This document shows, piece after piece, positions 38,279 to 62,454 of a stretch of 64,000 nt of DNA. The stretch is from positions 11,744,850-11,808,849 of the forward strand of contig NC_134029.1 in assembly GCF_964204645.1 (NCBI RefSeq), written 5' to 3'. The DNA is from Tubulanus polymorphus. Its lineage: Eukaryota > Animalia > Nemertea. Every line of letters begins with the position of its first letter. Position 1 is the stretch's first letter. Made by a program: the position numbers and the translations under genes. The notes beneath the pieces are model-generated. The model was not told the DNA's origin. It did not search any database and saw only the letters and a list, made by a program, of their open reading frames with translations.

Positions 38279-38890
38279 TTATTTTATAAATTTATATTCA
38301 TATGGAAATTGTAGTCTCAGTAATAATTTTGAACCTTTATTATTCTTTAATTTATTCATATATTCATCATGTAATTCAGTAGGTATAATTTGATTTTCTT
38401 CCAATGATTGTTGCATAGATTTTTTATCTTTGTTATAAAATAAAGCTAAAAATCTTATATTCTCCCTAAAGTCTTTAACAATTGAATTATATTTTTGATT
38501 TAAAACCCATGTTGTTATCCCATAATGTCTCCCAGAGAAAGCTAAATAACATAACTCACTTTCTCTCACTTTTGAATCGTGTAAATTTGCGCAATCATCT
38601 ATAATGAATAATGTATTTGATCCTTTATAAGTATCAATTGCTATTTTAATACAATTATCTAAATTTTCTTTTTCTGTTTTAGGATCTAATATAATAAACT
38701 TTTTCATCTCAACTATATCTCTATTATATGTTTTATTCATTTCATAAGTGGGGCAGAATAATATTATATTATCAAAATGATTCTTATAAATAGTTTCTAA
38801 CAAATCTAATATGAAATGTGTTTTACCACAGTTTGTTACTCCAGTAACTAACATATTATGCGGTTCAAATATAAATAAATCTTTATTCAT
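38279..38890 (-). CDS. A32/FtsK-HerA-family DNA packaging ATPase
   Basis: Walker A GVTNCGKT, Walker B FIIDD, GRHYGI motif, RENI. Confidence 0.92.
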   Translation of the reverse strand: MNKDLFIFEPHNMLVTGVTNCGKTHFILDLLETIYKNHFDNIILFCPTYEMNKTYNRDIVEMKKFIILDPKTEKENLDNCIKIAIDTYKGSNTLFIIDDCANLHDSKVRESELCYLAFSGRHYGITTWVLNQKYNSIVKDFRENIRFLALFYNKDKKSMQQSLEENQIIPTELHDEYMNKLKNNKGSKLLLRLQFPYEYKFIK

Positions 38891-39994
38891 TTATTCTTTT
38901 AATTTTACTAGATAAAATCCATTCATTAAATTTATCATCGTATCCTTTATATTTCACCAAAGAATATTTTTTTCCTTTAAGAGTTTTTGTTTTCAATACT
39001 TTTTCTATTATGTATTCTATTTCATCTGGATTTGGTAGAAGTGATAATTCTTGTTCATAGAAATAACCTAATATTTCTTCATCATTTAGATCTTCTAGTT
39101 TATAAACAAAAGGTTTAGTTAAAATTATCTTTTTAATCTTGAATATTTCTTCTGTAAAATTAGGGGTATAACCTTTATAAAATGTTTTTCTATATTTAGA
39201 TATTCTTACGTGTTGTCCAATTTTAAATTTGGTTCACCGAAATCATGTGTAACAAACGCTCCATATAAATTATTCCAAACTATTTCCGAATTATCTTCTT
39301 TTCTAGCTTGTATAGGTTTCATATTTATAGAACTATGTTTAGAATTATTATAACCTTTCACTGAATCATCTAACACATCGATATATTTATATGTTTCATT
39401 ATCAGTAAAATATTTCTACATTCTAGTTTTCAATGTTTTATTAAATCTTTCTATAATAGATGCTTTTTTATCTGAGTGTGTTGAAAAATATTCTACATCG
39501 TTATCAGATAATAGTTTTTAAAAATGTTTGTTATAAAATTCCTTACCTTCATCAAATTGTATCTTATCTGGAATAGCTTCTTTAAATATTGATTTAAAAG
39601 CATTTGTAACTTCTATTCCAGTTTTATTTTTGATTGGAATTGACCATGCGTATCTACTGAATATGTCTATAACATTCAGTATCCAGAAATATCCTTTGTT
39701 GTGTTCTTCTAAGTTCTTCATGTCAATTAAATCTGCTTGCCATTGTTGATCGATATATGAAACCATAACTTTTCTTGTTAAATAAGTTTTATCCATTTTC
39801 TTGTGGATTTGATATGTTGGTTGATTTTGTAACCATGATTTCAATTCACTATATTTTATATCACCGTGTGGGTGCCGCACGGCACCATTTTCATTATCAG
39901 ATTTAATTTTATTCCATAATTCTGAAATACTAGAATATGATACTTCACTTTCTGGGTTATAATATAAATCTCTTAAATATTGTTCTTTTTTCAT
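38883..39994 (-). pseudogene. Retroviral-like (rve) integrase with C-terminal chromodomain, frameshifted
   Basis: WQADLIDM, IDIFSRYAW, IQFDEGKEF; downstream KASIIERFNKTLK and YIIEKVLK...KGYDDKFNEW. Confidence 0.9.
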
Positions 39995-40000
39995 CTTATT

Positions 40001-40369
40001 TTAATCCATTAATAATAATCTTGGTTTATTTTCAATGACTTTATCATTTGACTTATTTTCTGGTATGATAGGTTTATTGTCATTGGAATCATCTTTATCA
40101 TCAGATTTGAATTTTGATTTATATATTACACCGGATAATATAATAACTGTTACTAATCCAATTGTAATATATAATTTATAATTACTTCCAGCATTAGAAG
40201 AATCAGATGGATTATTATTTGAATCAATATCAGATAATCTCTGTGATTCATTTATATCAGTTAATTTCTTTTTCTTAGCTTGTTTTAATTCTGAAGATCT
40301 TTTACCCAATTCTCTTGCCCATATAATTTGTTTCTCGGATCTAGGCTTCTTCTTAACGCTATCACTCAT
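40001..40369 (-). CDS. 122-aa protein with basic N-terminus and one transmembrane helix
   Basis: LYITIGLVTVIILSGVIY hydrophobic segment; TAAATG start. Confidence 0.7.
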   Translation of the reverse strand: MSDSVKKKPRSEKQIIWARELGKRSSELKQAKKKKLTDINESQRLSDIDSNNNPSDSSNAGSNYKLYITIGLVTVIILSGVIYKSKFKSDDKDDSNDNKPIIPENKSNDKVIENKPRLLLMD

Positions 40370-40964
40370 TTATTTTAGTTAATTTTTGTTCTGATTCATT
40401 TTCTGTTTCACTGTTTGGTTGTAGTACATCTGTTTCGTTCTTACCTGATTTATATTCCATAGGCTTGATGTTCGAAAATGTTATGACGCCAGTAGAAATT
40501 AATGTCATAACCGATCCTAATTGAAATGAAGCATAACCAACCCATTTTTGTAATTCAGTCATAACTAAGTAGTCATTTTTCAAATCACTATATAATTTAT
40601 TTTCATCATCAATTGGTATTAACTGGTTACATAACTGAGAATAACATTTGACAATACCATCTGAAATAGAATCATTTATTCTAGCTAATCTAGCTTCTTC
40701 ATAAATCTTAAAATATTTTATTACTTTATCGGGTTTCATAGCATCTAATTCTTGAAAAGTAATAATTCTATTTAAAAACTCCTTAGTTTTTCCACCGGCA
40801 ATCAATAGTTCTAGATGATGCTTAAAATATAAGTAGTATTCATAATCAATATTGTTATTAACTTGAATAGAATTAGAAACAACTGTATCTTTATTATCAC
40901 TAATACCCAAATCATCTAATGTTTTTTCAATATCAATACTATTCTTACTCGATTTCTTTGACAT
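40362..40964 (-). CDS. 200-aa conserved Polinton protein with C-terminal hydrophobic segment
   Basis: Intact ORF; homolog at 4008-4613; TAAATG start. Confidence 0.75.
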   Translation of the reverse strand: MSKKSSKNSIDIEKTLDDLGISDNKDTVVSNSIQVNNNIDYEYYLYFKHHLELLIAGGKTKEFLNRIITFQELDAMKPDKVIKYFKIYEEARLARINDSISDGIVKCYSQLCNQLIPIDDENKLYSDLKNDYLVMTELQKWVGYASFQLGSVMTLISTGVITFSNIKPMEYKSGKNETDVLQPNSETENESEQKLTKINE

Positions 40965-42123: not shown

Positions 42124-42771
42124 TTAACATTCAACGTATTTTTCATTATGTGTTGAGTTCCATAATTCAACAAATGTCTTTGCTTTATCCAGTTGATCTA
42201 AATATAACTGTATATCTAGTTTATTAGATTTAATTATGTTTTCCTTCTTTTCTAAAGGTCTTTTCCAGCTCCATATTAGCTTCTTATTGTATTCATCATT
42301 CATGTCAAATTTAGAAATCGGCAACACATGATCAATATGAAAGTATTCACCATAATTATCTATATTCATTTTATCATCGAATTGAAATATAATCCATGAT
42401 TTGAGAAATTCATCAGAACAACCCAATAGATTAGATAGTGTTTCTGAATGTGTTTCTTTGTTGAATAATTGTGTTAATCTAGATCTTAAGCATTGTTTCA
42501 GTCTAAAATTAAGATCTGTTTGATATCTTTCTCTCATATATTCTGCCATATAATAATTATAATGTTCTATATTATCTTCTCGATATTGTTTGGTATATAG
42601 TTTAGTACAAGTTTTACAGCAATATTGAAAACCATCTTTGCTAATCTTACGCTTATTAAATTCTGTTATAGCTAATTTATCTAATTCACACTTAGAACAC
42701 TTCTTGTAGTATATGTTTATGACACCAGTGTTATTTGTAATATTTTTAGTTTGTGGTTGTTCTGGTTCCAT
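42124..42771 (-). CDS. Zinc-ribbon + HNH-type endonuclease (giant-virus/phage-like)
   Basis: KKCSKC...DG.QYCCKTC; LLGCS; NYGEYFHIDHVLP; RPL...ENIIKSNK. Confidence 0.75.
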   Translation of the reverse strand: MEPEQPQTKNITNNTGVINIYYKKCSKCELDKLAITEFNKRKISKDGFQYCCKTCTKLYTKQYREDNIEHYNYYMAEYMRERYQTDLNFRLKQCLRSRLTQLFNKETHSETLSNLLGCSDEFLKSWIIFQFDDKMNIDNYGEYFHIDHVLPISKFDMNDEYNKKLIWSWKRPLEKKENIIKSNKLDIQLYLDQLDKAKTFVELWNSTHNEKYVEC

Positions 42772-42793
42772 TTATTATACATATTTTTTTACT

Positions 42794-42920
42794 AAATTGA
42801 TTTTAGAAGTTATTCATTTATATGTTATTCATGAATATATATGAATTATTTCAATAAAACTTTACTAACACTTTTAATGTTTAAAAATCTAACTCATACA
42901 AATATAAATATTGAAATATG
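42794..42920 (-). promoter_or_regulatory. Upstream module of the HNH gene, duplicated upstream of polB (62331-62440)
   Basis: Shared AAATTGATTTTAGAAGTT and ACTTTACTAACACTTTTAATGTTTAAAAATCTAACTCATACAAATAT blocks. Confidence 0.65.
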
Positions 42921-42937
42921 TTTAAAATATACCTATG

Positions 42938-43280
42938 TATTAGATACCCTATTAGATACCATATTAGATACCCTAATACCTGATACCCTATTAGATACCT
43001 TAATTACTTAAAACCCCCTTTTTAAAAATAAATATTATTTATACAATTTTCAACCAATTTATTTTTATTTTTTCAACTAATATATGAATAAGTTTGAAAA
43101 TAATAAAGGTTATTTATTATTACTGAGGTTTCAATATAAATTTAAAAAAGAAATATAATTTAAGGTATTTTCAAATAATACGTATTAGATATGTATTAGA
43201 TATGTATTAAATACGTATTACATACCTTAATACTTAAAACCCCCTTTTTTATTTACTATTATTTTATACAATTTTCAACC
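42938..43280. repeat. Two intergenic arrays of TATTAGATAC-type units, each followed by ACTTAAAACCCCCTTTTT
   Basis: Arrays at ~42938-43055 and ~43178-43280. Confidence 0.7.
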
Positions 43281-44101
43281 TTTATTACTTTTGAGTGTTA
43301 GATAATTACTTTCTGAATCACTTTCATCATCACTCTCCAATTCATCATCAGACCCTAACAATTTATTCAAATGCTCTACCGTATCTTCATAAATAATTGG
43401 TTTATTGATATACTTATTAGTCATCTCAACTATATCTTTATTTTCTGATTTAAGTTTCATAGAATCTTTAGTATCAATGCGCTTTCCTGTATTTTCATTA
43501 TTATCTTTATTAGTGTTTGCTCCTAATATTTCATTTACAATGTTTGATTCTAATTTAATAGCATCGATTAAATCTAATTCATCTTTATTAGGCGTTGCTA
43601 ATAATAAATCTTTATATAAATCGTTACCATTTACTTTTTGATTTGAAACAAACTTTGTAACATATCTAAATGGGTGTTCTATAAATTCTCTTAAACCAAC
43701 ACGTTTTATAACATTAGTAATATGTGAATTTGTATTCATATGATTATTCCAATTTGATGGAGCGTTTGAAAATTCACCTTTACAATAATCACAATAATTT
43801 CTATTTTCACTAACATTTAATATTATTGCATTATTAGATGTAGAAGGTATTACATTATTAGATGTAGAAGGTATTGCATTATTAGATGTAGAAGGTATTA
43901 CATTATTAGATGTAGAAGGTATTACATTATTATCAATTACATTACTTAAATTATCAACAACACCACTTTTATTATTATCGATTTCTATTAGTTTAGTTTT
44001 ATAAATTTTGAAAATAGGATCAAATATCAAAGCTATATTACAAGGTATTACATAATATAAACCATCATTATTTTCATGTGTATCGATGTATGGAATATGT
44101 T

Positions 44102-44690
44102 TGTAGCGGGCTTATTTTCCTAACCGTTTGGTTTTACTCTATTTTACTTTACGTCCGGTACTATGTCCGGTCCGGGACCGCAGTTTAGTGTGGAGTATAC
44201 GGGCGCGTGTTTAGAAAGTTCGTGACCTGCCCAATATATTAGTTTTACCCTCAGTTCTTGAGGCTTCACTGTCGGTGAGTGCATTCTCTATTGTTTGTTT
44301 AGGATGTATAGGCTATATTGACGTATGTTATTTCTGTGTAAATCTCCTGAGAGAGTTGTATCACTGGTTTTCGAGATTGGCACTCGCATGCCAGAGGCTG
44401 ATACCCTTAAGGTTATAGGACGTTTCCTGGTCTTACTAGACTTGATTATTCGTGAGTTGATTACTTAGTATTTTTCTTAGTGTGTTTTCATTTCTTGTCT
44501 TTTTAGTCAATCGTAGTTTACTGTTTGACGTCGGAGCTTGTGTGATGTCTATATGCAATGTAAAGAATGTGATCCGAGATTTGTACTCCTGAGTCTGAGA
44601 AGATTAAATAAACAAAAGCAGTAATAACACGCATATGACGGAAGCTAATTAGTGGTTTTATTAACTTAGTCAGAACTGAAGGATATTACA
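44102..44690 (+). repeat. 5' LTR
   Basis: TGTAGCGGG...GGATATTACA; about 7 mismatches to the 3' LTR by eye. Confidence 0.95.
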
Positions 44691-44860
44691 TTATTGACGA
44701 CAACGCCACCTAAGATGTCTGATACTGATGTATCAACAAAAGAACTGCAGAATGGATTGTCAGTGGAGGTGATGCCGATGGCTCAGAAACCGGTAAGATT
44801 GCCGACTTAAAGAAATCGGCCCTTGACGACCAGGATGATAGGCAGTCCATCCAGTCGTCC

Positions 44861-47800
44861 GTGAAAACACATGACTCTACCAAATCCAAGGCTAAGCTCG
44901 AAATAAAGCTCAAGGCACTGAAGAGACAACAAGAACTCGAGACGCGAAAGTTGCAGTTAGAGCAGGAGCAAGCCCAGCTTGACCTTCTCACCCAAATGGA
45001 ATTGGCAAGTTTAAGCGATGACGGAGATGAACGGGAAGTAAACCCGAAAGCTCCCCCATTTGAGCCAGATAAGTGCCATACACCTACGCCCCCAGGTTCG
45101 TCTACGTCGCAGGATGTCATCGCCATTGAAGGCCTGATCAACGAACTTAGAAAGCCCAAGGTGGACATCGCTAAGTTTGCCGGAGACCCGCTTCGGTATC
45201 CGAAATTCGTTCGGGAATTCACAGCGAAGGTCGTGAATTACACTAAATCTAATGCTGAGAATCTTAGTTATTTGGAGCAATATACCACCGGTGAGGCGAA
45301 CGAGGTGGTGTCGGGATTTACGTTCATGGATCCTGAGGCCGGTTACTTGGCAGCTATGACTGCGTTAAAGGAGAGATATGGTGACTCTGAGGTCATTGCG
45401 CATGCATTTATTGATAAAGCGCTTTCATGGCCCGCGATTAAACCAGACCGGCCTCGAGAATTAGATAAATTCGCGATGTTCCTTACTGAATGCAAATACG
45501 CCGTCGAGTCGCTGCAAGAAGTTAGAATTCTCGAGTACTCAGAAAATCTGAAAGGGTTAGTTTCAAAACTGCCGCGATTTCTACACGATCGATGGAGGAC
45601 GATGGTCTATTCGAACAAAGAGCGTGGTCGTTCGACAACATTTACTCAGTTAGTCGATTTCGTGCGTCGAGAGGCTCGTAAGAGTAACGACCCAGTGTAC
45701 GGTCACCAAGTATTAGATGGTGAACAAGGTAGCAAGTCTTTCGATAAGAGATACATGAAATACGATAAAGGCAAACGTGCCTATGCTACTTGTAGTACGA
45801 CGTCGGTCGGTGTCGGTAGCAGCAGCGACCCTCCCTCCCAGTGTAAACCTAAGTCCGGTTATGATAAACCATGTTTACATTGCGGTGATGAAAGGCATAA
45901 CCTACTAAATTGTGCGACGTTCGCTAACATGTCGGATTCCCAGAAAACGGAATCAATTAAGATCGCTAGACTCTGTTTCGGTTGTCTCCGTCCAAGACAC
46001 ATGAAAAAGTTCTGTAAACAACCGTTGAAATGTTTGAAATGCAATAGAAATCACGCAACGTTCATGCATTTCGAGAGACCTCTACCGCGAACAACGGCGT
46101 CTGATGAGAAAATTGGTCTATCCACGACTCGGGAGGAAACAACGAATGTAGCTTCGATAATCGGACACACCAACGATGGTTACGATTCGGGAGTTCTCGC
46201 GATTGTCCCGGTGAAAGTTGGGCTACCCAACAGCCCATACAAGGTCAGTACCTATGCGTTTTATGATGGAGGTAGTTCTGGAACACACGCAACAGAACTC
46301 ATAAAGCGAAAACTTGGAGCTACGGGACCGAAGGGCAAAATTAAATTCGACACGGTTTTCGCGCGTCATGAAGGGGATAGCTATAAAATCGGCACGCTAG
46401 TCGTCTCCGACTGGAATGAAAAAGACACGGTAAAACTGAGTAAAGTGTCTACAATGAAAGACATTCGCGTTTCAAGGTCATTTATCCCGCGTCAAGAAGA
46501 TATCGTGAAATGGCCGCACTTAGCAGACCTGGATATTCCTGACTTAGACATGGAGATCGGTCTCATTATAGGTTACAACAGTGTTGATGCATATCGGCCG
46601 ATAGAGTTGCGTCCTGGTTCCTCAGGAACACCGTTCGCTACCAAGACTAAACTTGGTTGGGTGGTTTGGGGCCTTATTAAGGACCCAGACCCACATTCGA
46701 GACCTATGTGTAACTTTATCGCTAGTTCCACGACTACGGAGAACCTAGAAAACTTAGTTGCTACGGCTATGAAATTCGACTTCCCCGAACGGCAATCCGA
46801 GGAGAAACAAGAAATGTCGGTCTTAGACAAACAGTTCATGAGTTCGATCGAAAGTTCGCTGAAGCTTAAGGACGGACACTACGAGATCGGGCTCCCACTC
46901 CGTGAAAACTGTAAATTACCGAACAATCGAAACATGGCGTTAAAGAGGCTGATGGGTGTCAAGTCGAAATTTCGAGCAGATGGAAATTACCATGATCAGT
47001 ATAAATTATTCGTGAGCGATATGATTAGGTTAGGCTACGCCGAAGTGGTTCCGGTCGAACTCAGCAATGACGAAAATGTGTGGTACTTGCCACACCACGG
47101 CGTGTACCACCCTCAAAAACCTAATAAGGTGCGCGTAGTATTCGACGCCTCAGCGAAATTTCAGGGGATTGCTTTGAATGATGTACTCTTGCAAGGCCCA
47201 GATGTCACGAATTCGTTGATTGGAGTTCTTTATCGCTTCCGCGAAGGCCAGGTGGCGCTAAAGGCCGACATCGAGAAGATGTTTTTTCAGGTACGTGTTC
47301 CCGAAAACGACCGAGATTTCTTGAGATTCTTGTGGTTCGAAGACGGTGATATAGAGAAAGGAATCGTTTGCTTGCGCATGAAAGTCCATATGTTTGGCGC
47401 CGTCAGTTCGCCAGCGTGTGCGAACATCGCCTTACAGCGTACGGCTACAGATAATGCGGCTAAATTCAGTACTGAAATCGTCAAGTCGATAGCTCGAAAC
47501 TTTTATGTCGATGATTTTCTTAAATGCCCATTCAAAATCGCCGAATCCGAAGAATTAGCCGTCAGTACACAAAACCTTTGTAGGAAAGGTGGATTCAATC
47601 TTACGAAATGGTCATCGAACAAGAGCACTGCGTTAAATAGTATTCCCCCAGATGATCGGGTTGATGAAACTAAACAAGAGGACTCAGTCTTAGGGATGAA
47701 ATGGTCCATTGTTGATGATACATTGTCATTCATTGTCAATATGAAGAACAATCCTACTACGCGGAGTGCTGTCAACAACTAGTGCGACGTATGATCCGAT

Positions 47801-50025
47801 AGGGTTTATCGCAATACTGCCGGTAAAGCTGCTATTGCAGCAGCTGACTTGTCGGAAAGCTGATTGGGATGAATGTTTAAATGACACAGAGTTGATCGAA
47901 TGGAAGAACTGGCTCACTGCGATGGAAAATGTTGACAAAGTCCGGGTAACCCGCATCTTGCGTCCGTCAGGTACTGTTAACAACGAAATTATATCATGCG
48001 AAATTCACTGTTTTTCGGATGCGAGCGAAGTCGGATATGGGTCGTCGTTGTATGCTCGACTCGAAGATAGCGATGGAAATGTCCAGTGTTCGTTGATTCT
48101 TGGTAAATCCAGGGTTGCTCCATTGAAGCGACTGTCGATTCCGCGGTTGGAGCTCACTGCAGCGGCCATGTCGGTCCGGCTGTGTAATATGATGCTGCAG
48201 GAGATCGACTTAGAAGTCACCGATATGGTTTTCTGGACTGATAGTTCCATAGTCCTATGATACATTAAAAATGAATCGAGTAGGTTTAACACATTCGTTG
48301 CGAACCGTGTCTCGTGTATTCAGCGGAGTTCAGATGTAGACAAATGGCGTCATGTTAGGTCCGCTGAAAATCCGGCTGATTTGGCATCGCGTGGCATGAC
48401 TCTCGATGAATCATGTTTGAATCGATGGCTTCATGGCCCCGAGTTTCTGAGTAAACCGAAATCGGAGTGGCCAGACACACGCGTAGGCAATAACGTTTCG
48501 CTCGACGGTGATCCAGAAGTGAAGCGTGTTACAACGATCAACACTACGTTGGCTGTAGATCTGCCGGAAGACGAGCATCCAGTTGACTGAATCCTTAGAC
48601 GTCGGTCGCAGTGGTCTCGTGTTAAACGTATATTGGCATGGGTCCAGCTAGCGGTGAAAAAGTTCAAGCGTCAGTCCTTAGATAAGTTCGAGCTCATAAC
48701 CGCTGATTTAATCGCAGCTGAACTATTGATTATTTCGCATGTTCAAAAGCAAGACTTTCCCGAAGTCTACCGTCGCTTGGAGGAAGGTCACGAGTTAAAA
48801 AAGTAGTGTAATCTTAGGAAGTTAAACAAAGATGAGGGTGTTATTAGGGTTGGTGGCCGTCTTAGTTATGCCAGTCTTGCTTATGATCAGAAACATCAAA
48901 TCTTGCTAACGAGCAGATCCAGATTAGCTACAATACTGATCGAAGACGCGCATCGTAAAGTTGGTCATCTAGGTTGCGAGAGTATTCTAGCGTACCTCAG
49001 GACACGATACTGGATGACTCATAAGCGTAAATCAATCAAAAGTTTCCGAGGGAAGTGTATCGTGTGTATCACTTCTCATAGTCCGCCTGGCAATCAGAAA
49101 ATGGCGGACTTACCGATCGAGCGTGTCACGCCAGACAAACCGGCATTCGCAAACTCCGGTGCGGACTATTTCGGGCCGATCGAAATTAAAAGCGGTCGAA
49201 GCGTGGTGAAAAGGTACGGCGTGATATTCACCTGTTTGGCTAGTCGCGCAATTCACCTCGAAGTAGCGTACTCGCTTGATAGCGACTCGTGTATAAATGA
49301 TACCAGGCGATTCATGGCAAGACGGGGAAATGTGAAATCGATAAGTGGCTGCTGATCGCGAATTGAAGGAATCCATTAAAGGCTGGAACGCCTCAGTTAT
49401 TCATGATTCATTGCTTCAGGATGGCGTCGATTGGTCCTTCAACCCCCCTGCTGGTTCGCACTTCGGGGGTGTGTGGGAAAGGCTAATCCGTTCCGTCCGC
49501 AGAGTGTTGAGATCGTTGATGAAGGAGCAAACGACACGCTTGGATGACGAGTCGTTTCACACGCTCCTATGCGAAGTGGAGAGTATTCTAAATAATCGGC
49601 CGATCACGAGAAACTCGTCAGACCCCGCGGACATGGAAGTTTTGACCCCGAACCACGTGCTGTTATATAAACCTGGTCTATGTTTACCTCCAGGTTTGTT
49701 CGTTAAGACGGACATGTTCGTAAAACGCAGGTGGCGCCAGATTCAGTATTTAGCGGACATTTTTTGGAAGCGCTGGATAGCAGAGTACATTCCTACATTG
49801 CAAGTACGTCAAAAGTGGCTAACTCAAAATCGAAATGTAGCTGTCGGAGATATAGTTTTGGTAGCAGACAGTACACCAAGAAACTCGTGGGCAATGGCTA
49901 AGGTCATTGAGGTGCTTCCGGACAAATATGGAGCAGTACGCGTAGTTCGGATTAAAACTAAAACAAATGAGTTGATCCGTCCCATAGACAAGTTGGTTTT
50001 ATTACTGGAGGTCGATGAGGAATAG
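44861..50025 (+). pseudogene. gag-pol: Bel/Pao gag-pol polyprotein (gag, zinc knuckles, protease, RT, RNase H, integrase) with frameshifts and stops
   Basis: KFAGDP..Y..F, CFGCL...H...C, YLPHHGV, KVRVVFDAS, ADIEKMF, FYVDD, FSDASEVGYG, IPRLEL, DYFGP, GGVWERL, RRWRQIQ. Confidence 0.95.
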
Positions 50026-51275: not shown

Positions 51276-51334
51276 ATGTTTATATACTTTACCTCCTTCC
51301 ATTTATATAATAAATATTTATTAAAGTTAAAATT

Positions 51335-52584
51335 TTAATTCATAACAATATCTAATTGTGAATTTACAATATTTAATTGCGCGTCAGATATAATATAAAT
51401 GTGCATTTTGAAATTTTTGATTCCTTTATTCTTTGTCATGAATAATTGTATTCCATCTTTAGTGTTCTGTAATTTTTTTCCAGAACCATGTAATGAATTA
51501 TCCTCTGTTGTTCTAAAATCTAACCATAATGCATATTTATTACCGGTATAATAATCAATTTGATTAATATTACAATTTTCAGATGATTTTACTTTTTCAT
51601 TCATAAAATGTTTTCTAATTTCTGGCCATTGATCAATCATTCTCATTCCTTGACAAAATATTTTATTTGCTATTCCTTCGATAGTTATTTCTACTTTTGT
51701 TATTTCAGGATTATAATAATTATCAACATTTATTGCGCCATTAGTATATGTTGCAATGGTAAAAAAAATATTAATATACCTTTAATAGATCTTCTTGGGA
51801 AGTTAATATTCTCATTAATAATTTCATCATTTGCATTAATAGTTACAGTTTTAAATTTATCAATATAATCATATAATAATGAAAATCCTTGATTGTATTG
51901 AGTTTGAATTATACTTGCAATATTTTCATCAGTTACTGTATCATATTCTAAACATATATTCGATAATTTATAACTCATATCTTTATTAACGCTAGATATT
52001 ACAATTTCATTTACAGGAGCAAATGTTATTTCGAATATAACGTCTTCTTGAATTGCGTATTTATATAAAGGTGCATTGTTATTTATCAATTCAAAGTCTA
52101 ATGGAATTTTATATTTGCTTCCATATATACTTTTTATCAATTTATCTACAGCATTAGTTAATATTGCATTATGCGCTTCTGATCTTAATTTATTTTGGTT
52201 TTCCGATTGAATGCCTTGAAATATCATATTATTTCTATTTTCTTTAGTTAACCATAAATCTTTATAATGCATAAATAAATTATAATCATCTAATGAGAAA
52301 ACTGTCTCTGGGCCAATCTTTATAGATAATTTTTTAATCAAATATCTTCCAACATTATCAACGACATAATTATTATCATTACCGATTACTTTTATATCGG
52401 CTGATAAATACATACTATTTGGAACATAAAAAGTATTTTGTGTTAATCTAGGAATTCTAACATATAAAGTTTCATCGGGATTAATATTTGAAGGATTATG
52501 AGTAATTATATGATGCGATCTTTCTGCTTTAATAGCATTAGATATTCTATGATTCTTAGAAGGATTGATATAACTCCCACTCAT
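51335..52584 (-). pseudogene. Major capsid protein (double jelly-roll, Polinton type), frameshifted
   Basis: ITHNPSNINPDETLYVRIP...YKLSNICLEYD...NINFPRRSIKGIL then YALWLDFRT...LHGSG...IISDAQLNI; size and position fit an MCP. Confidence 0.75.
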
Positions 52585-52603: not shown

Positions 52604-54315
52604 TTATTTATTTTTTATCATGTTTACTAATCCAAAAATAATAGCACTTAAAACTGTAATTAAAAATAAAATAATATGTTCAGCAGCAAAGTTAATAATA
52701 TTCCCAGCAGATTTCAATATAAAACCAACAATTGATGCAATAACTCCTGGCAATGCTGCAGCAGATTTTTTAGATAGTTCCCATATTATGCTCATTATTA
52801 TGCTAAATATTTTGCTCATTTCTTTAAACCATCCTAAACTTTATCTTGTATAGAATTATTATCATTCGGGGGTTTATCCGGTTTATTGGGAGTAGGTGTA
52901 GATTTCAAAGCATTTGATATTGCTAAACCAATTGTTGTAAATACCATAGTTACAGATGTTAGAATTGAAAGAATTGTTATACCTTCTAACTTAAATAATA
53001 ATCTTATTCTGTCTTTTAATGATATTTCAGAATTTGGTTTAATCAACAAATCTTTAAAAATAACTTTAAATTTTTTAATATGATTAAGATCATATGATTT
53101 TAATAATGTATCTCTTTCTTCTTTCTGTAATTCTATATTATATTCTGAATCATCTATTTTTTTTACTAAAGCTAACTTTCTGCTTTCAAAATCAGCTTCC
53201 TCTATTACTTGATGATCTCTTTTTAATTCTAATTGTTTTAATTTTTCATTTGCATTAGCTAATTCTTTTTCTAACATGGTTATTTTAGAAAATCTCATCT
53301 TAATATTAGCAATTTCACCAACTGATTCTTGCATACCTTTAATTTCTCTACGTGCTTTTTCAGGAAATTCTTTTAATTCATCATCAGTTAAATCAAGTAA
53401 TCCTTTTTCTAGTAAAGATAGTATTCGATTTATTCCAGTTTCAGTACCGGGTGTATCTAAAATACTATTCATCTCTTCGTCAAATGAATGAACTGCATCA
53501 AACATTTTATCATAATGTTTCACTAATTCTAATTGATTTGAATCATTATCAATTTGTTGAATATCTCTTCTCGATGTTTCGGGTGTTGAAGATCTTAATT
53601 TATCTAATCGATTTGCAAAATCTTCATCAGTTTCTGGATCAACATCATTAGGATTTAAATTTGGATTTTTAAATGGTGAATATTTGTTTATATCAATATT
53701 AGGAATTGGTTCTTCTTTATTTATTCTTTCGAGTGCATTCCATATAATTCTGAGAAATTCTCTACCACCTTTTGAACCTTCAATTGTAGATAATGCTCGC
53801 ATTCCAGGTTCAAAAATATTTTCTTGACCCATTCTAGATAATTGAATTGATACAATTTTGTTATTTAAATTAACATTATAATACCATGAATCATTTTTAA
53901 ATTCTAAATTATTCGTGAAATATGGGTCATCTTTAAAAATTTGTTCTACAACATCTTCAGTATCAATTTCATCTATAACAACTTTTGGTAATAATTCGTT
54001 AACAATTGTATCTGTTACTCTAGATTTCATTTTATATAATTCCATAAGTTTATCAGGATATTTTTCTTGTTGTTCTACTAATAGTTCCATGAATTCTTTT
54101 CTTTCTGTTCTAGTTGAAATTCTACCACTTTCAGGAGCTTGTAAATATTTAATTAATTTTTCACGTAATTCGGAATTACTTCCATCATAATCATCATCAT
54201 AATCATCATCTTCACCTAAATTAGTATTATATTCTGGCTCATTACCGTCATTGAAACTTGTTTCACCAGGTTCATCTAAAGGGTCCAATGGAAAACCTTC
54301 TCCACCTTCTGCCAT
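52604..54315 (-). pseudogene. Large acidic/coiled-coil protein with about three C-terminal hydrophobic helices, broken near 52834
   Basis: 493-aa ORF ending GITILSILTSVTMVFTTIGLAI plus 71-aa ORF with AAALPGVIASIVGFIL and IILFLITVLSAIIFGLV. Confidence 0.7.
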
Positions 54316-54330
54316 TTACATAATAGAAAA

Positions 54331-55656
54331 TTAAAATTTGAAATATAATATTCCTCCGATTACAATTCCTATACAAGTTATAGCTAATTTAGTATTTTCA
54401 TGGGATTTATTATCATCATTTAGTTTAATTATATCATGTTGAATATTATCAGTTCTAATATTTTCTGATGTATTATAATCTTTTATTTTAGAATCATTAT
54501 TTAATTTAATATTATTAGTTTTAGTTTCTGTTGATTGAATATGTTTTTTATTTTTTTCACCTTCCATTAATCTTGGAGCAGTGATAATCTTTTTATTTAT
54601 ATCATTTAATCCAAATGAATTATTTATTGTTGCAGTTTTAATTAGATTATTATAACCAATTATGTTTCCCATCTTTAATACTAAATCATTAGAAATAATT
54701 AATAGATTAGGGCCTATACAATAATTTAATCTAATATGTGATTTATCTAAATAATTTTGATATCTTACAATGTTTTCTGGAATCGATCTATTTTTATCAT
54801 TATGAATGGAATCTTCAAATAAAACTTTGAATTGTTTCTGCGCATCGAATGAAGTGTTATCATTTCCAATTATTGGGGATCTTGTTTCAACTTGCGCACC
54901 TAAAATACATATCAAATAAGTTCTAATAGATTGATTTATTCTTTGTATACCAGCTTTAGTAAAACCTTCACCATTTTCTAAAATGAAATTAACCCAACCA
55001 TTATTGTTTTGTTGTTGTATATTATTATAATATTTTGGTAATTCATTCCAATTTAGTGTTCTTATATCTGAATCTGTCATTATTTTTCCAAATTCTTTAG
55101 TATACAATATTCCTAATCCACCCATTGTTCCAATTTTTGCTCTAAAATCTTTATTTGAGTTAATATTAAATTCATAACATATTTTATAAAACTTAGAAAA
55201 ATTAATATTATTATTCAATTCTTTAAAATATTTTGAACCTGGTAAAGGACATTCTAATTCATCTAATATCAATTTTATTTGAAAATAAGTATGAAATCTA
55301 AAAAGTGATAACATCAATGGTAAACTTGGTTTGTTTAAATGATCATTCCAACTAATTCCACATCCTGTTGTTGCACAATAAACAGCAAAATTTAATTGGT
55401 TCTGCCAATACTTCATATTAGATTTTAATAACCATTGTTTTGCCTCATTTAAATTTTTGAAATTAATTGTATACACATGAAATATATTTTCCATCTTTAC
55501 ATGAAAATTATTACTTTCAGTAACATAAATATATAAATCAATTAATGAATTTAAAACTTCATTTCTATATGTAATATCTTTATTAAAATCTATTGCTGGG
55601 ATATTATATTTAATTGATTTATTATATTGGAAAGCTTTTGGAAAACTATCTGCCAT
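54331..55656 (-). CDS. 441-aa conserved Polinton protein with C-terminal transmembrane anchor
   Basis: Intact ORF, YWQNQLNFAVYCATTGCGIS motif, C-terminal LAITCIGIVIGGILYF; decayed homolog at 8415-9527. Confidence 0.8.
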   Translation of the reverse strand: MADSFPKAFQYNKSIKYNIPAIDFNKDITYRNEVLNSLIDLYIYVTESNNFHVKMENIFHVYTINFKNLNEAKQWLLKSNMKYWQNQLNFAVYCATTGCGISWNDHLNKPSLPLMLSLFRFHTYFQIKLILDELECPLPGSKYFKELNNNINFSKFYKICYEFNINSNKDFRAKIGTMGGLGILYTKEFGKIMTDSDIRTLNWNELPKYYNNIQQQNNNGWVNFILENGEGFTKAGIQRINQSIRTYLICILGAQVETRSPIIGNDNTSFDAQKQFKVLFEDSIHNDKNRSIPENIVRYQNYLDKSHIRLNYCIGPNLLIISNDLVLKMGNIIGYNNLIKTATINNSFGLNDINKKIITAPRLMEGEKNKKHIQSTETKTNNIKLNNDSKIKDYNTSENIRTDNIQHDIIKLNDDNKSHENTKLAITCIGIVIGGILYFKF

Positions 55657-55672
55657 TTATATAATTAAAAAA

Positions 55673-56107
55673 TTAATAATTTATTAATTCTTTTAATAAT
55701 TTATCTTGTTCTTCAACTGTTATATGACCATTTAAACTTATTATATAATCTAGTGTGTTCTTTAATTTATTAATTTCTTTTATATTAGTTTTAATTTTTT
55801 CTTTATTACTTTTTATATTTAATTTTGAACTTATACCAGTTAAAACACTTGAACTTAATCCTAATACACCAATTGATATAGCTAAAGGCGTTAATGGACT
55901 GAATATTGCTAGAAATGTTATTACAGAACTAATTGTAACTGAACCACTTATAATCAAATAATATATAATTTTACTTTTTAAATATTTTTTCTTTTTTATC
56001 TTTAAATCATTTTCAAATTCTAATATTTGTTTTTCTAAATATGTTTTTAATTTAGTTTTATTTATATCATGAGGAATAATATCAATATTATCAACTTTAT
56101 CTTCCAT
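55673..56107 (-). CDS. 144-aa coiled-coil protein with two-helix membrane hairpin
   Basis: IIYYLIISGSVTISSVITFLAIF-SP-LAISIGVLGLSSSVLTGI. Confidence 0.75.
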   Translation of the reverse strand: MEDKVDNIDIIPHDINKTKLKTYLEKQILEFENDLKIKKKKYLKSKIIYYLIISGSVTISSVITFLAIFSPLTPLAISIGVLGLSSSVLTGISSKLNIKSNKEKIKTNIKEINKLKNTLDYIISLNGHITVEEQDKLLKELINY

Positions 56108-56128
56108 TTATTTAGCAAAAAAAAATTA

Positions 56129-56551
56129 CTAATTAGTAAACTTATAAGCAACAAATATAACAATAACAGTTCCGCCTAAAATCCAAATTATTTCATATTT
56201 CTTCTGTTCATTACTTGGGGTATAATAATCTGATAATTTAGGTTTGTATAGATGTAATTTTTCTTTATTGGATACTGCGTTATATAAACTCATTGCATCA
56301 TCGACTGATTGAAAATCTCTATGTGAAATCTTCTGATCATATAATTCCTTGTTAATATAATCCATATAGTTTTGTCGTTTTTCTCTATATTCTTCTGCTG
56401 CTTTATTGTATTTCTCTAATGCTAAGTTATGTCTTTTTTGTTCTGTTAATGATCCATTTTTATCAATATGTTTTATTAAATAACCACCACCAGTAAATGC
56501 TAAAGCGTTAACAATTGCCGATCCTATAATAGTTATAATTGCAGAAGCCAT
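56129..56551 (-). CDS. 140-aa protein with N- and C-terminal hydrophobic segments
   Basis: MASAIITIIGSAIVNALAFTGGG...IIWILGGTVIVIFVAY; homolog at ~9983-10401. Confidence 0.78.
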   Translation of the reverse strand: MASAIITIIGSAIVNALAFTGGGYLIKHIDKNGSLTEQKRHNLALEKYNKAAEEYREKRQNYMDYINKELYDQKISHRDFQSVDDAMSLYNAVSNKEKLHLYKPKLSDYYTPSNEQKKYEIIWILGGTVIVIFVAYKFTN

Positions 56552-56575
56552 TTATTTAGTAAAATAATTACGCAT

Positions 56576-56797
56576 TTATATGGGAGTAATATATTTTTGT
56601 TTTTCCAAATAATCAATAGTTAAATTAGATAAAGTAACTGCTAATGTTAATTTAAAAATATCATTTATATCAAATCTATCAACATTAACACTTCCCATTT
56701 TTAATACCTTTTTTAATACCATTGAATAACCAACAGTTCCAACTGATAATAATGCTCCATTATATAATCCAGTTATTATCCACTTATTATCACTCAT
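56576..56797 (-). CDS. 73-aa small hydrophobic protein
   Basis: TAAATG start; homolog at ~10426-10662. Confidence 0.7.
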   Translation of the reverse strand: MSDNKWIITGLYNGALLSVGTVGYSMVLKKVLKMGSVNVDRFDINDIFKLTLAVTLSNLTIDYLEKQKYITPI

Positions 56798-56831
56798 TTA
56801 TTTATCAAAAAAAATTACTATCATCAAAATA

Positions 56832-57155
56832 TTAAGTTATCTTATTTATGATTATTTCAACATTTATTTCATTACTAGTTTCATTTGTATATATTTCAAT
56901 TATTATTTTTTTAATATCATCGATGATAAAATCTTCATCTAATTCATAAAATCTTAAAGATTCTCTAATTAAATTAGTAATCTTTTCTACATTAAAAGTT
57001 ACTTTATCTATTGTTGTTTCATACTCAAATGTTGTTTCATTAGAATATGCAATATTTTTAATATGTGTAATTACATCATTAACGTTAAATTTCATTTCTT
57101 TCTCATGTTTAAAATCAAACCCAAAACATATACTCGGCCCAACAGTTATATTCAT
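56832..57155 (-). CDS. 107-aa hypothetical protein
   Basis: TAAATG start; internally deleted homolog at ~10700-10856. Confidence 0.65.
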   Translation of the reverse strand: MNITVGPSICFGFDFKHEKEMKFNVNDVITHIKNIAYSNETTFEYETTIDKVTFNVEKITNLIRESLRFYELDEDFIIDDIKKIIIEIYTNETSNEINVEIIINKIT

Positions 57156-57171
57156 TTATATAGTGAAAAAA

Positions 57172-57927
57172 TTACTCTTTACATCTTATAACTAATTCAT
57201 AAATTACAGGGAAATTATTTAAATCAATTAAATAACCATTATGATTTCTTATTTCTAATTTAAAATTATTAAATTTAGGAATGCAAGGTTTAAAATCACA
57301 TTCTGTTAAATTATAATTTATTTGAGTTCCAAATTGTTTAACATTTTTTAGCGGTAAAATATTTAGTATACTAGAACTACAAATTGTTTCTTTAGTTGCT
57401 TCGAAAGTTTTTGTAGGCTCGATTAAATTGCAATAAATATAAAAGTGCGTTAATGGTATTATATTTGAGCTGCCTTCTGCGTTTCCAGTAACTGTAAGAG
57501 GTTTAATTCCTAACATTTTAGCCAGTGGTTTGTTTACCATAAATTTATGTTGTTCATTAGATATCTTTATTCTAATTTTATTAGTACTATCAATTTTATT
57601 AAATTTAATTTCAAATACAGAAGTGCCCCCGATTTTCAACCGAGCTCTTCTATTAATTTCCTGCGCTAATGATTCTAAATTATATAATCCTGGTTTTAAA
57701 AATATATGAAACCATTTATCTTTATTTCTCATATAAATCATAAACCCTCTATGTTCAAAAGTTTTATCCGAAATATTATAAAAAGAATTACATAAACTTA
57801 TATTTACTAATTTTAAATCTACACAATTCTTGAATTCTCTATCTAATTGAACTAGTAAATTATGTGATTTATAATCTGTAAGTCTTCTAGAATCAACAAA
57901 TATTCTGTATTCGTTTAATTCTACCAT
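57172..57927 (-). CDS. Minor capsid (penton-like, single jelly-roll) protein
   Basis: IFVDSR, NSFYNI, PGLYN, FYIYCNLI, LEIRNHNG..IDLN motifs typical of Polinton mCP. Confidence 0.8.
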   Translation of the reverse strand: MVELNEYRIFVDSRRLTDYKSHNLLVQLDREFKNCVDLKLVNISLCNSFYNISDKTFEHRGFMIYMRNKDKWFHIFLKPGLYNLESLAQEINRRARLKIGGTSVFEIKFNKIDSTNKIRIKISNEQHKFMVNKPLAKMLGIKPLTVTGNAEGSSNIIPLTHFYIYCNLIEPTKTFEATKETICSSSILNILPLKNVKQFGTQINYNLTECDFKPCIPKFNNFKLEIRNHNGYLIDLNNFPVIYELVIRCKE

Positions 57928-57944
57928 TTATTTTACATATTTTC

Positions 57945-58298
57945 TTATTCGAAATCTATTTCATGATGCCCTTTTTCATTCTTACCTTTGTATACGAAAT
58001 AGAAATCTCCAGAACATAATTCTTCTAAGTCTTCACTTGATAATCTATGAAATCTATCCGGTAAATATGTTCTGAATTTATGTGTATTTCCTTTTAATCC
58101 TTCATATTCTAAGTGTATAACTAATTTATCTCCATAGTTATTAGTAACTGTAACAATATCTGTAATTAGATATTTCTTATGGATTGTTAATTCTGTTAAC
58201 TTTTTGAATTTATAATCTACAGATTTTACATTTGTGATATCTTTAATTCTATCTAGAAATGATTTGTTGTTCTCACTGTGTGTTTGTTTACTCTCCAT
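57945..58298 (-). CDS. 117-aa protein, putative OB-fold ssDNA-binding
   Basis: Beta-rich, YG..LV..L...F..YLP.RF and YKG motifs; intact in both copies; function inferred. Confidence 0.65.
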   Translation of the reverse strand: MESKQTHSENNKSFLDRIKDITNVKSVDYKFKKLTELTIHKKYLITDIVTVTNNYGDKLVIHLEYEGLKGNTHKFRTYLPDRFHRLSSEDLEELCSGDFYFVYKGKNEKGHHEIDFE

Positions 58299-58327
58299 TT
58301 ATAATACATATTTTTATTAAAATTTGA

Positions 58328-61300
58328 TTAACACGTTAGAATTCTTTTCATTATCTCGTTCTCTTTTGTTTCTTCTCTTTTAAATTTTAAGTATTCATCT
58401 AAATTACAACCATAAGCAACTGTATGAATTCCATCATCCAGAATATATCTTTTATCATCAAATGGGTTTAGACTAATCTTTTCAATTTCTTCAATAAACA
58501 TTTCATGATCTTCAGATCCTAAACATCTCATCTTATGTTTTCTAACTTCTTCATTGAATATACAATTGATGTAATCTTTGAAATGAATATTCTTTTCTAC
58601 TACACTTTTGGTTATTCCTTTTAACTTTTTAGCTTCATGTTCTTTAGTTTTATATGAATACATTTTAGATCTAATACCAATGAACTCTATCATTTCTTCA
58701 CCACCTAATTCATCTTTGAATTTACCAGGAACTTTTTTATTATCATTGCTAAACAATTCATGATTTTTAGGATAGTTAGTGAAATCAAAATGATGTTTTA
58801 ATGTTTTCAAATCATCTGTTATGTTATCAGTTTTTATCTTTAATATGTAAGAATCTGTATCAAAATATAGTATTTCTATATGTTTTTCTCCAAAAAGTGG
58901 TTGTAATACATTATAATAGAATTCATACATTAGTAATTTTGATAATTCTAAAACTGATGCGCCAACATAGATTGGTTTATTAAATTTCATTGATGTTCTT
59001 CTCATCTTAACTGCAGCTAAATTTTCATCAAATATTCTGTTACCATTGAACTTAGGATATTTTTGTAAATGTCTAATTCTTTTACCATTACTAACTAACT
59101 CAATATCATTTCTATTTCTAATATTTTCACAAGTCTTACCATAGAATGCATTATTCATTAACTTGAAGAAATCTTTTTCGAAATCAGTTTTAGCTTCAGT
59201 TCTCTGTTTGGTGTTAAAATCTATATATTTTTCTAACCACTTAGATTGGCTGAATGAAATATATCTATGTACTTTTTTTAGAACCATTCCTTGTTTTAGA
59301 TAAAACTTTAACATTCTATAATGTACTACATAATTATATTTATCTTCTTGAGTTACCATTAACTTTTCTGTATGAATATGATTTTCGGGTTTAATTCTTT
59401 TTTGGTAATTTGATAATTCTTCATGAGTTACAGTTTTATGTTCGGGACAGTAAGCTAGATTTCTAGATTTAAATTTAATATGTTCAGGATATTCCAAGTC
59501 TACAACAAAGAAGTAACCAGTATCTGAATCATCTGCAATATCTAGGATTCTTTTCTTCCAATCAAATTTATCATTATTTTCATTCTGTAAAACTTCACTT
59601 ATTTCAAATACTCCATAAGGTTGTGGTTCCATCATTGCCCAACCATATAGATTATTTGCATCTATATATAATAACTTATATCCAGGGTTATCATTTACAT
59701 TGAAATATCTATCCCCTAATACACCTGAAACTCCTCCTCTTATAGATTTTTCAAATAATGATAATTGATCTATATTTGTTAACAAATCCATTTTTATATC
59801 TGTAAATTTTAATCCACAATCCCATGTTAATCCTGGTGATGAATAATTATGACAAGGATCAATATTAAAATATTTTAGGTTTACATCTCTAAACCTTTCG
59901 AATATATCAGTTAATAATAATACATCTGATTTTAAATATAAATCTACTAATTGTCCATGATTTTCTATTTTGAAGTGATTCCAAATATTCAATGTTCTAT
60001 TATATACTTCATCTTTAACATATTCATTTTTTAATTCATCATAGAATTGTTCTTTCAATAATTCAGTTATGTTAAAATCATTATGTGATTTATAGAAAGA
60101 ATATGGAATTGCTCCTTTATATCTCATTAATTTAAAATCATCATTATTTGGATAGTGTTGTTTTAATATTTTTAATTCATCATCAACTAATGATTTTGAT
60201 AAGTTATCTAATGAACTATTTAAAAATCTATATGAATCTATAAATCTTAGACACCCAAATTGGAATGATATATAATTCTCAGATGTTTTAGCTAACATTC
60301 TTAATTTATAAGTTGTTATCTTTTGGTCTATTTGAATTTAATCGTTCTATTTCATTATTGATTTCTTCTATTTTATGACATAACTGTTTGATGAATAAAT
60401 GAGCATCATATCCTGATAAATTATGAAATATTACTGGTACAAAATTAATTTTCTTAGCTTGTAAGTTACAATTCTCATGTGCGGCGCCTCTAAACTTTCC
60501 GTTCAAATGATCATGGTCTCTTACTTTTTTATCTTTATAATTAAATATCTTTTCACAATAATAACATTTATCTGCAAACGCAAATGCTTCTTTATCTTCT
60601 TCTGTCATTATAATTTCTATATTTGTATTCAATAATTTACTAAATCTTATTTCATATTCAATTAATAAGTCACAAAAATGATTGATAACATTTTCATTTC
60701 TGTAATTATAATATTCACTTTCAATTAGTTCTGGATAATCAGATTTTATATATAACCCGAAAGCAGCAGCTGATTGATGAATCTTTTTAATAGTATTTGT
60801 TATTGGTGGTTCATCTGAAAAATCATTTTCATTAGGATTTAATTTCTTTCTTTTATAATATATTTCTTTTCTATCTTGATCAGTTAGTTCTTTATTCAAT
60901 GATTCAAAATCTCCATATATTACAAATGGTACTTTATTTTTGTAATCATATTTTTTGAATTCTAATATTTTATCTTTTTCATTTGGTAAAACTAATTTAC
61001 AATAATCATGATTTTCACATAATTGTTTATGATTTAATAATGTACTTTCATTACTGAATCTATGTAAACATTTTCTACAAAGATATATTTTATGGTGATC
61101 ACTTTCTGATTTAAAAAATAAATCGATTTGTTTAATCCACATATAATGATTCTCATAATATAGTATATCTATAACATCGTTTGAATCATAATCTTTTGAT
61201 AGATATAAAGGTTCTAATGTATAATGTTTTATATTGTTACCTTTTGTATTTGGTAATTTGATTAAATCAAATACATTTATCTTTATATTATTATCTCTTT

Positions 61301-62308
61301 CTATTTTTGGGATGTTTTTAATTATAACAGGATACTTATCTATCATATAATTATTTTCAAATGGTTTATAATGAGTTAATCTACAAATATTATAAGTTGC
61401 AGGATGTAAACAACTTATTATAGCCCATAGAAAACATTTATCATCTTCATTTTGTACATTTATAACAGCATTAGTTTTAAATGGTAGTTTAATATAACCC
61501 GATGCTTCAATATCTGGTTCTTTATAATATGATACATTATTTTCATCAATTGGTTTTGATTTAGTTAACTTATTATATTTTGTGTTATAAACATGTTAAG
61601 TCATAAATATTATTTCATCAAATATTAAACCAGATCCATCAAAACATTTCTCTTCTATTTTAGTTTTTACTTCATTATAACATTTATCTAATTTATCATC
61701 TATATGTTGTTTTGAAATAATATGTTGTGAATGAGAATTTATATTATATATTGGTTTATCTTCAGATTTTATAAACTTTACTTTAACTGATATACTAATT
61801 TTAGGATATTCAACATCTGTAATTATTTTCATTATTTCTTTCATATTTTCTAAATGTTTTTTATTTTCTTCTAATGTTTTTCCTTTATGAAATTTAAACT
61901 CGGTAGATCTTTTTTATCTAATGAATTAATATAATTTCTTACATGTTCCATGTATGGTCTTTTATTGTTTAATTTATTTTTTATGCTTTTAATTGTCTTC
62001 TGTTTCTTATCATTATCTTTATCAAAATAATCTTCACCTAAAATATCATTATTCTTATTTCTAATATGACTTTTAGATTTTAAATGTTCTTTATAATATC
62101 TTTTATCACTGAATGATTGATAACATGTATCACATTTGTATGTTTCTTTTTCATTCTTTAATTCATCTAATTTAGTTTCTAATATATCATCTTCATATTC
62201 TAATTTCAATTTATTCTGTAAATGTGTTTTAGTTTTATTGTGTCTTGCTTTTTGGGATTTATCTATATTGATATTACATGTTGGACATTAGTACTTATTT
62301 GCTTCCAT
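58328..62308 (-). pseudogene. polB: Protein-primed family B DNA polymerase with N-terminal zinc fingers, OTU-like segment and endonuclease VII-like insertion; several stops/frameshifts
   Basis: YGDFES, FHNLSGYD, FIDSYRF, YIDANNLYG, KLMNNAFYGK, YFDTDS, KLKGI; CYYC...VRDHDHLNGKFRGAAHENCN; NEDDKCFLWA. Confidence 0.95.
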
Positions 62309-62454
62309 TTTAATACTAAATTTTTTTTTTAAATTGATTTTAGAAGTTCAATGATTTATATCATGTACTATTTCAATCACACTTTACTAACACTTTTAAT
62401 GTTTAAAAATCTAACTCATACAAATATGAATATTGAAATAATGTTGTAAATATA

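Follow-up and report, generated by a model that had tools for sequence, protein, structure and literature searches.

A pox-type TAAATG motif at the gene starts of a Polinton in the nemertean Tubulanus polymorphus and of some of its relatives

The element and its gene starts

We analysed a stretch of 64,000 nt from the nemertean Tubulanus polymorphus (NCBI RefSeq assembly GCF_964204645.1, contig NC_134029.1, positions 11,744,850 to 11,808,849 of the forward strand), referred to below as the window and numbered from its first letter. The element copy at 38279–62308 encodes a DNA polymerase B (polB), a retrovirus-type (rve) integrase, a packaging ATPase and a double jelly-roll capsid protein and has terminal inverted repeats, all of them features of Polintons (Mavericks). 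By this gene content the element is a Polinton, broken and present in multiple copies, and is not classed as an adenain-bearing adintovirus. Its genes lie on the minus strand, and 14 of its 16 gene starts read TAAATG (the 16 genes being counted after joining open reading frames (ORFs) that are fragments of broken genes). As far as the sequence can tell, this motif is a real, lineage-specific and promoter-shaped code.

TAA stands directly before the minus-strand ATGs at 38890, 40369, 40964, 42771, 51302, 52584 and 54315, and likewise before those at 55656, 56107, 56551, 56797, 57155, 57927 and 58298; these are the 14 coordinates given in an earlier note on this DNA, and all of them check out. 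The forms are AATAAATG (eight starts), TATAAATG (five) and TGTAAATG (one). The integrase start at 39994 departs from the motif, as the note had it, and reads TAAAATAAGATG, while polB reads TAAAATG, also as claimed, with its ATG at 62308 and not at the element limit of 62330 that the note used. TAAG is a baculovirus-like motif, and its occurrence in the integrase start was dismissed as a single case. Among the remaining 432 minus-strand ATGs of the element (polB and integrase starts included), only 24 follow TAA; against this background, which is the comparison with internal ATGs that the note had proposed, the 14 starts are far enriched (Fisher p 8.5e-15). TAA precedes 11/275 ATGs on the opposite strand of the element, 8/232 in the retrotransposon inserted in it and 31/864 in other DNA of the window. 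Other copies in the window keep TAAATG at 8/9 mappable starts, at ~87% identity and within neutral expectation, and at the start motifs of the integrase and of the gene at 40369 no variant of at least 20% is found among the variants listed (40 of 53).

The genes at the left end begin with an A32-type packaging ATPase at 38279–38890 (PF04665, E 1.6e-11; start AATAAATG). It is followed by the rve integrase at 38891–39994 (PF00665, E 1.3e-7), which is broken after codon 158 and for that reason scores just below the curated cut-off; it has a chromodomain-like tail near 38900, and the relatives L023 and L083 have rve plus Chromo. Next come a 122-aa protein with a hydrophobic stretch (40001–40369), whose TAAATG falls among the final codons of the gene upstream, and a conserved 200-aa protein (40362–40964; start TATAAATG) from a family of 21 ORFs across the window and the related loci, both with no assigned function. 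The gene for a 215-aa protein without Pfam match (42124–42771) starts with AATAAATG and has an A-run from -19 to -13; its upstream region (42763–42941) is ~80% identical over 180 nt to that of polB (62300–62466), a duplicated promoter region. The gene at 43275–51302 starts with TATAAATG at 51302 and is split near its 5' end by a long terminal repeat (LTR) retrotransposon, with its remainder at 43275–44101, where a 24-bp in-frame repeat occupies 43800–43943. The insertion is a plus-strand BEL/Pao element (44102–51275) with 589-bp LTRs that are 98.8% identical, a 5-bp ATGTT duplication and the domains DUF1759, RVT_1, DUF5641 and Peptidase_A17, and it stands outside the promoter system.

The major capsid gene (51335–52584; two broken frames) starts with AATAAATG and has a T-run from -15 to -10. 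Its product is 79% identical to the protein P0001 (415 aa), and the predicted model of P0001 (predicted local distance difference test, pLDDT, 84) matches the fold of the capsid proteins of iridovirus, PBCV-1 (Paramecium bursaria chlorella virus 1), mavirus and Sputnik (E 5e-17), with mavirus and Sputnik ranking below iridovirus and PBCV-1 and all of them near 10% identity. Through this model the capsid protein of the element is assigned to the double jelly-roll fold. A gene of ~570 codons at 52604–54315, whose frame is broken by a stop near 52834, starts with TGTAAATG preceded by a T-run, and the gene of a conserved 441-aa core protein (54331–55656; 291 homologues) starts with TATAAATG, also with a T-run; a confident model of the 441-aa protein (pLDDT 82) has no match in BFVD, the PDB, a wide search (best Z 3.9) or the Atlas. 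Four small genes (144, 140, 73 and 107 aa) fill 55673–57155, and a T-run, a spacer and TAAATG are found at each of their starts (56107, 56551, 56797 and 57155). A 251-aa protein (57172–57927; start AATAAATG with A-run; 52-member family), which we infer to be a penton (minor capsid) protein, has a weak match to PF19254 (DUF5901; E 9e-4), and a profile search of solved structures gave nothing relevant to it. A 117-aa protein with no assigned function (57945–58298; start TATAAATG with A-run) is followed by the protein-primed polB at 58328–62308, which is broken, matches PF03175 (E 9e-14) and is 85% identical to P0213 (1363 aa). Other Polinton-type polB relatives (P0219 and P0252) contain an intein and LAGLIDADG or Hom_end domains.

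Altogether the integrase, the capsid gene, polB and two further genes are broken in this copy; the intronless state of the genes is judged from ORF lengths that agree with those of relatives. The left inverted repeat (38001–38250) is 97.6% identical over 250 nt to the right one (62453–62701), whose outer side is apparently truncated. Polintons make a 6-bp target-site duplication, and none is legible at the ends of this copy, the right end being apparently truncated. A palindrome of ~405 bp (37784–38188) overlaps the left inverted repeat and may be the true terminus; this and another long palindrome at an element end (about 1764–1971) could form hairpins.

The motif across relatives and the shape of the upstream region

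Relatives were fetched with the 441-aa gene from about half of a metagenome collection (405 confirmed, the best 80 retained), and their starts were called blind to the motif: in every ORF of at least 90 aa, the start was taken to be the first ATG that follows an in-frame stop. Over these 80 loci the frequency of TAAATG is bimodal. A quick tree holds the window and 72 of the loci (the other eight, with short matches, were omitted): a clade of 50 loci (support 96) has TAAATG at 3/192 core-gene starts and the remaining 22 loci at 57/73, and the eight unplaced loci have it at 2/13. Scans of IMG/VR with polB and ATPase yielded four more loci, L081–L084, and those with capsid and 441-aa queries gave no match. 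One of the four, the viral contig L083, was found by polB alone (36% identity, 38% GC) and has TAAATG at 7/7 starts, six of which are in head-to-head pairs; the counts for L081, L082 and L084 are 0/10, 0/1 and 1/14. Two starts, in L004 and L008, read TAAATATG, so TAAAT is retained where the ATG sits slightly downstream, and the sister locus L005 reads TAAAAATG at 3/4 starts.

Some gene content seen in these relatives may be mentioned here. L083 carries a Ulp1/adenain-like protease domain fused ahead of its integrase (L083:2740–4251; match to pS273R of African swine fever virus (ASFV), E 2e-4). Proteins of the window have no Pfam match to an adenain/Ulp1 protease, and tblastn with the L083 domain matched L083 and L082 only and nothing in the window, although a distant protease could escape this single query. 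On the opposite strand, the close relative L002 encodes a deoxynucleoside kinase (L002:10340–10981; PF01712, E 2e-31), and this gene too starts with TAAATG.

TAAATG could in principle be a Kozak-type translation-start preference of an AT-rich host, since AT-rich genomes often have A at -2 and -1, and A-runs precede the ATG in the AT-rich relatives L012, L020 and L055. We regard this as highly improbable. Eight AT-rich control loci (at most 40% GC) have TAAATG at 0/24 core-gene starts, yet loci of 34–44% GC keep it, which argues that the motif is not a matter of composition. Also, nearly all of 47 eukaryotes are reported to have A or G at -3 as their strongest start signal (PMC2241899), and the same holds for 140/192 starts of the motif-free clade, but 58/73 starts of the other tree loci have the disfavoured T at this position, so the motif is not the usual context of a start codon.

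Another explanation is that TAAATG is a by-product of packing, i.e. that the stop codon of the upstream gene, or an AATAAA poly(A) signal, overlaps the next ATG. AATAAATG is indeed found at 8/14 starts of the window, six of these 9–29 nt past a stop, and at the ATPase start the TAA is probably the integrase stop, since the broken integrase frame reaches the ATPase start (in L002, the integrase ORF stops immediately before the ATPase ATG). At the other 13 starts, TAA and the upstream stop are distinct: the stop lies 15–34 nt before at ten of the 14 starts, one start is inside the upstream coding frame, and two have no near upstream gene. The earlier claim that TAA is mostly not a stop is borne out in this respect, with a distance somewhat larger than the ~10–25 nt it gave. 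The two bases before TAA vary as well, with at least ten types in relatives. Head-to-head genes, which have no upstream gene, weigh most here: in 19 loci picked partly by motif, TAAATG is found at 26/30 head-to-head starts and AATAAATG at 5/30 (TAAATG 2/126 in other loci), and in five loci one orthologous head-to-head pair, with 5' ends overlapping by 22–37 nt, has the motif at 10/10 starts. Since the motif persists there, it is neither stop codon nor poly(A) signal, and on these sequence comparisons the packing explanation is largely refuted and has very little probability left. (For polB, the head-to-head counts and the TATA, ATNTGA and TTGAA counts below use a position 12 nt inside the gene; the T count that follows uses 62308.)

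The region upstream of the motif has a shape of its own. T occupies 128/180 of the positions from -15 to -11 in the window and near relatives (78.8 when shuffled; 0/2000 shuffles) and 136/220 in distant loci (83.5 when shuffled; 0/2000 shuffles). In vaccinia late promoters (PMC5294985), a spacer of 5–7 bp separates a T-rich core from TAAAT(G/A), which covers the start site, and the spacing of the T-patch agrees with this. More generally, the TAAAT over the start codon and the T- or AT-rich core a short spacer upstream resemble vaccinia intermediate and late promoters (PMC5294985, PMC12917281, PMC4542343), and the two poxvirus features, a TAAAT initiator over the ATG and a T-rich core about 5–7 bp upstream, are both present when starts are pooled. 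Two classes of starts can be seen in the window: a T-run ends at -10 to -12 at 7/14 starts (the capsid gene and the block 54315–57155), and an A-run ends at -13 or -14 at 5/14, three of which have AAAATATGTA (42771, 57927 and 58298). These classes may correspond to late and intermediate promoters. When the regions upstream of 85 starts were scanned for the early core of vaccinia promoters, polB of L083 and L011 scored well, as did unrelated starts.

Which polymerase would read the motif

The reading that we favour, and to which we give somewhat better than an even chance, is that the element is a mavirus-like parasite that integrates and is transcribed in trans by a polymerase of poxvirus type. 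TAAATG would then act as initiator for an RNA polymerase that a co-infecting DNA virus of the cytoplasm brings along, with the T-rich or A-rich patch ~10–18 nt upstream as its core element. If vaccinia is a guide, RNA synthesis would begin within the AAA and slippage would add a poly(A) leader (slippage at the initiator gives such leaders, PMC6211774), the mRNA then carrying A instead of the genomic T at -3; we infer that the unfavourable T is tolerated because the leader replaces it. For replication, packaging and integration the element would rely on its own protein-primed polymerase, capsid and integrase, respectively, and it would stay silent between helper infections, as mavirus does. We consider dependence on a helper likely. 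In support, TAAATG also marks conserved genes of salmon gill poxvirus (PMC4542343), only that one of eight endogenous virophage types was reactivated which has the late motif of the helper (PMC10945749), and Polinton-like viruses have been co-sequenced from entomopoxvirus occlusion bodies (PMC11296320). The promoter interpretation of the earlier note survives the tests of composition, start-codon context and stop or poly(A) signals and agrees with vaccinia spacing; its argument from tight packing fails and carries no weight, as motif-free relatives are packed equally tightly.

The same promoter role could be served by another polymerase, which we think unlikely; it would come either from a non-pox DNA virus of the cytoplasm whose initiator is TAAAT or from an autonomous sister element with an RNA polymerase gene of its own. 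The yeast elements pGKL1/2 are the closest model for it: like the element here they are linear, AT-rich, protein-primed DNA with a TAAAN-type initiator, and they have a pox-related RNA polymerase and slippage-made poly(A) leaders (PMC6211774). The TAAAAATG form at 3/4 starts of L005 and the TAAAATG of the window polB fit such a looser initiator. The upstream box of yeast virus-like elements is ATNTGA, and it is at shuffle level here (0/15 and 3/33 starts). No RNA polymerase gene was recognised among the proteins of the window or of the scanned relatives, many of which are unannotated. pGKL1/2 further differ in having their own RNA polymerase, a capping enzyme and a conserved upstream box (PMC6211774), none of which was found here, and they lack the capsid and integrase genes of this element. 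As for viruses, the late initiator of ASFV is TATA and not TAAAT (PMC7163114), and TAAATG merged with the start codon is a poxvirus pattern that reaches as far as salmon gill poxvirus (PMC4542343).

A promoter of host RNA polymerase II, i.e. a compact initiator beside the ATG that became fixed in the lineage with no helper, seems improbable to us. Relatives carry a chromodomain integrase and the element integrates, which implies a nuclear phase, its copy number has reached tens, and an older invertebrate start consensus, UAAAT(A/C)AACAUG, has TAAAT a few bases before the AUG (PMC2241899). Five starts of the window are TATAAATG, which contains a TATA box. With RNA polymerase II, a start in TAAAT would give a leader of 0–2 nt, and from a TATA at -5 transcription would begin within the coding region; both misfit the geometry of this polymerase. 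TATA is not enriched at -45 to -20 (4/15 against 3.6 and 0/33 against 1.5 expected), and element genes contain 4–6 AATAAA per kb without depletion, although the depletion test found none in any group and so did not separate the motif groups.

Several observations count against a pox-type polymerase as the reader of the motif. The tree does not unite the 22 motif-rich loci in a supported clade, and four of them (L005, L006, L007 and L056) are without the motif; the loci are kin and orthologous starts repeat, so the counts above are not independent, and the motif-positive set of the head-to-head and T-patch tests was picked partly by motif. L083 taken alone has no significant T-patch (16/35 against 12.9; 337/2000 shuffles), and the T-run is missing at half of the starts in the window. 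Window genes show no depletion of TTTTTNT, the early terminator of poxviruses (6 against 7.9), whereas genes of near relatives do (6 against 14.2). TAAAT is short, and TAAA initiators are frequent in vaccinia beyond promoters (PMC12917281); yeast virus-like elements have a similar initiator (TAAAN, PMC6211774), as do ranaviruses upstream of their DNA polymerase genes, so that the attribution to poxviruses is not unique. Motif-free relatives, too, are tightly packed and tolerate internal AATAAA. Four sets of 23, 31, 10 and 19 scanned proteins, many of them unannotated (the set of 31 being 31 of 43 picked representatives), contain no recognised pox-like transcription gene, and neither transcripts or 5' ends nor a helper virus came to light. 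A further difficulty is that the integrated copies are nuclear and the predicted polymerase cytoplasmic.

Among known systems, mavirus and the endogenous Cafeteria elements (PMC10945749) are similar in being integrating double jelly-roll viruses with integrase and polB, and their genes bear the late motif of a large virus, with motifs that differ between types. Mavirus has a protist host, a known helper, Cafeteria roenbergensis virus (CroV), and a TCTA late motif (PMC5294985), whereas here the host is an animal, the motif is pox-type, the helper is only predicted and no Ulp1 protease was found. The entomopoxvirus-associated Polinton-like viruses (Barth et al. 2024, PMC11296320) are likewise Polinton-type and proposed hyperparasites of animal poxviruses, their poxvirus link being one of co-occurrence; they differ in being ~12 kb long and in having an adenovirus-type protease and no rve integrase (two have a tyrosine recombinase). 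The main text of that paper has no mention of promoter, TAAAT, motif or transcription. With animal Polintons/Mavericks and adintoviruses (PMC8502044, PMC11071308, PMC11131425) the element shares the protein-primed polB, the rve integrase, the packaging ATPase, the double jelly-roll capsid, inverted repeats and many chromosomal copies; unlike adintoviruses (PMC8502044), it has no detected adenain/Ulp1 protease. In these three papers the word 'promoter' is absent, and the portions covered of 10.1101/2024.03.23.586382, 10.64898/2026.10.13.758929 and PMC10328495 make no mention of pox-type promoters on Polintons. Unlike vaccinia, the motif here is on a non-poxvirus element, at 14/16 genes, and the start site, the poly(A) leader and the polymerase are predictions. 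Poxvirus-associated Polinton-like viruses are known from the literature; in the literature searched, with most subscription journals outside it, there is no report of a TAAATG code on Polintons.

A second motif, further copies and surrounding DNA

In TAAATG-free loci we found, post hoc, TTGAA 20–60 nt upstream of 22/52, 17/59 and 16/45 starts (6.5, 4.7 and 2.3 when shuffled; 0/100 shuffles reach each count). These loci belong to the 50-locus clade (e.g. L049, L061, L013, L015 and L048, with TTGAA or ATTGAA); TAAATG loci have no such enrichment (1/15 and 4/33 starts). TTGAA resembles AAAATTGA, an early motif common to Phaeocystis globosa virus (PgV) and its Polinton-like virus (10.1101/2022.07.28.501842), and it could instead be a host factor site. 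Taken as a promoter motif, TTGAA against TAAATG would be a counterpart to the motifs that differ by type among endogenous virophages, and the finding of another motif in sister clades suggests that helpers have been switched within the family. It is a tentative idea, which we hold to be rather doubtful, that this animal Polinton family consists of integrating virophages whose promoter codes mark their helpers, TAAATG for poxviruses and TTGAA for the early machinery of other large DNA viruses. If true, integrating virophages would extend to animals, TAAATG lineages would parasitise poxviruses, including undescribed invertebrate ones, and poxvirus-type viruses would be predicted where none is recorded; Polinton promoters would map undiscovered viruses, and integrated copies could serve as an inherited, inducible antiviral defence in animals. 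In protists, a motif shared with the giant virus predicted which endogenous virophage reactivates (PMC10945749), and a pox-type code over a Polinton lineage would be a similar handle on the expression of animal Polintons and their need for a helper.

The element is abundant in its host: a genomic run labelled with this species has a depth of several hundred over most of the element as compared to 17–34 in retrotransposon bins, which indicates tens of element copies or more. A run guessed to be RNA gave only two short partial contigs, and this has no bearing either way on expression. Decayed pieces of further copies, 77–94% identical, lie at 1–4590, 8416–12535 and 28652–31216 of the window. The piece ending at 12535 and the one starting at 28652 adjoin in the element, and are therefore one copy split by ~16 kb of other DNA. 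FLYWCH, zf-AD, Myb/SANT and DDE_Tnp_4 domains are found at 14461–15213, 19123–19392, 21966–22244 and 25896–26177. The transposons of the window have an animal character, and zf-AD taken alone is a weak pointer to arthropods. A 31-bp tandem array occupies 4546–5705 of the window.

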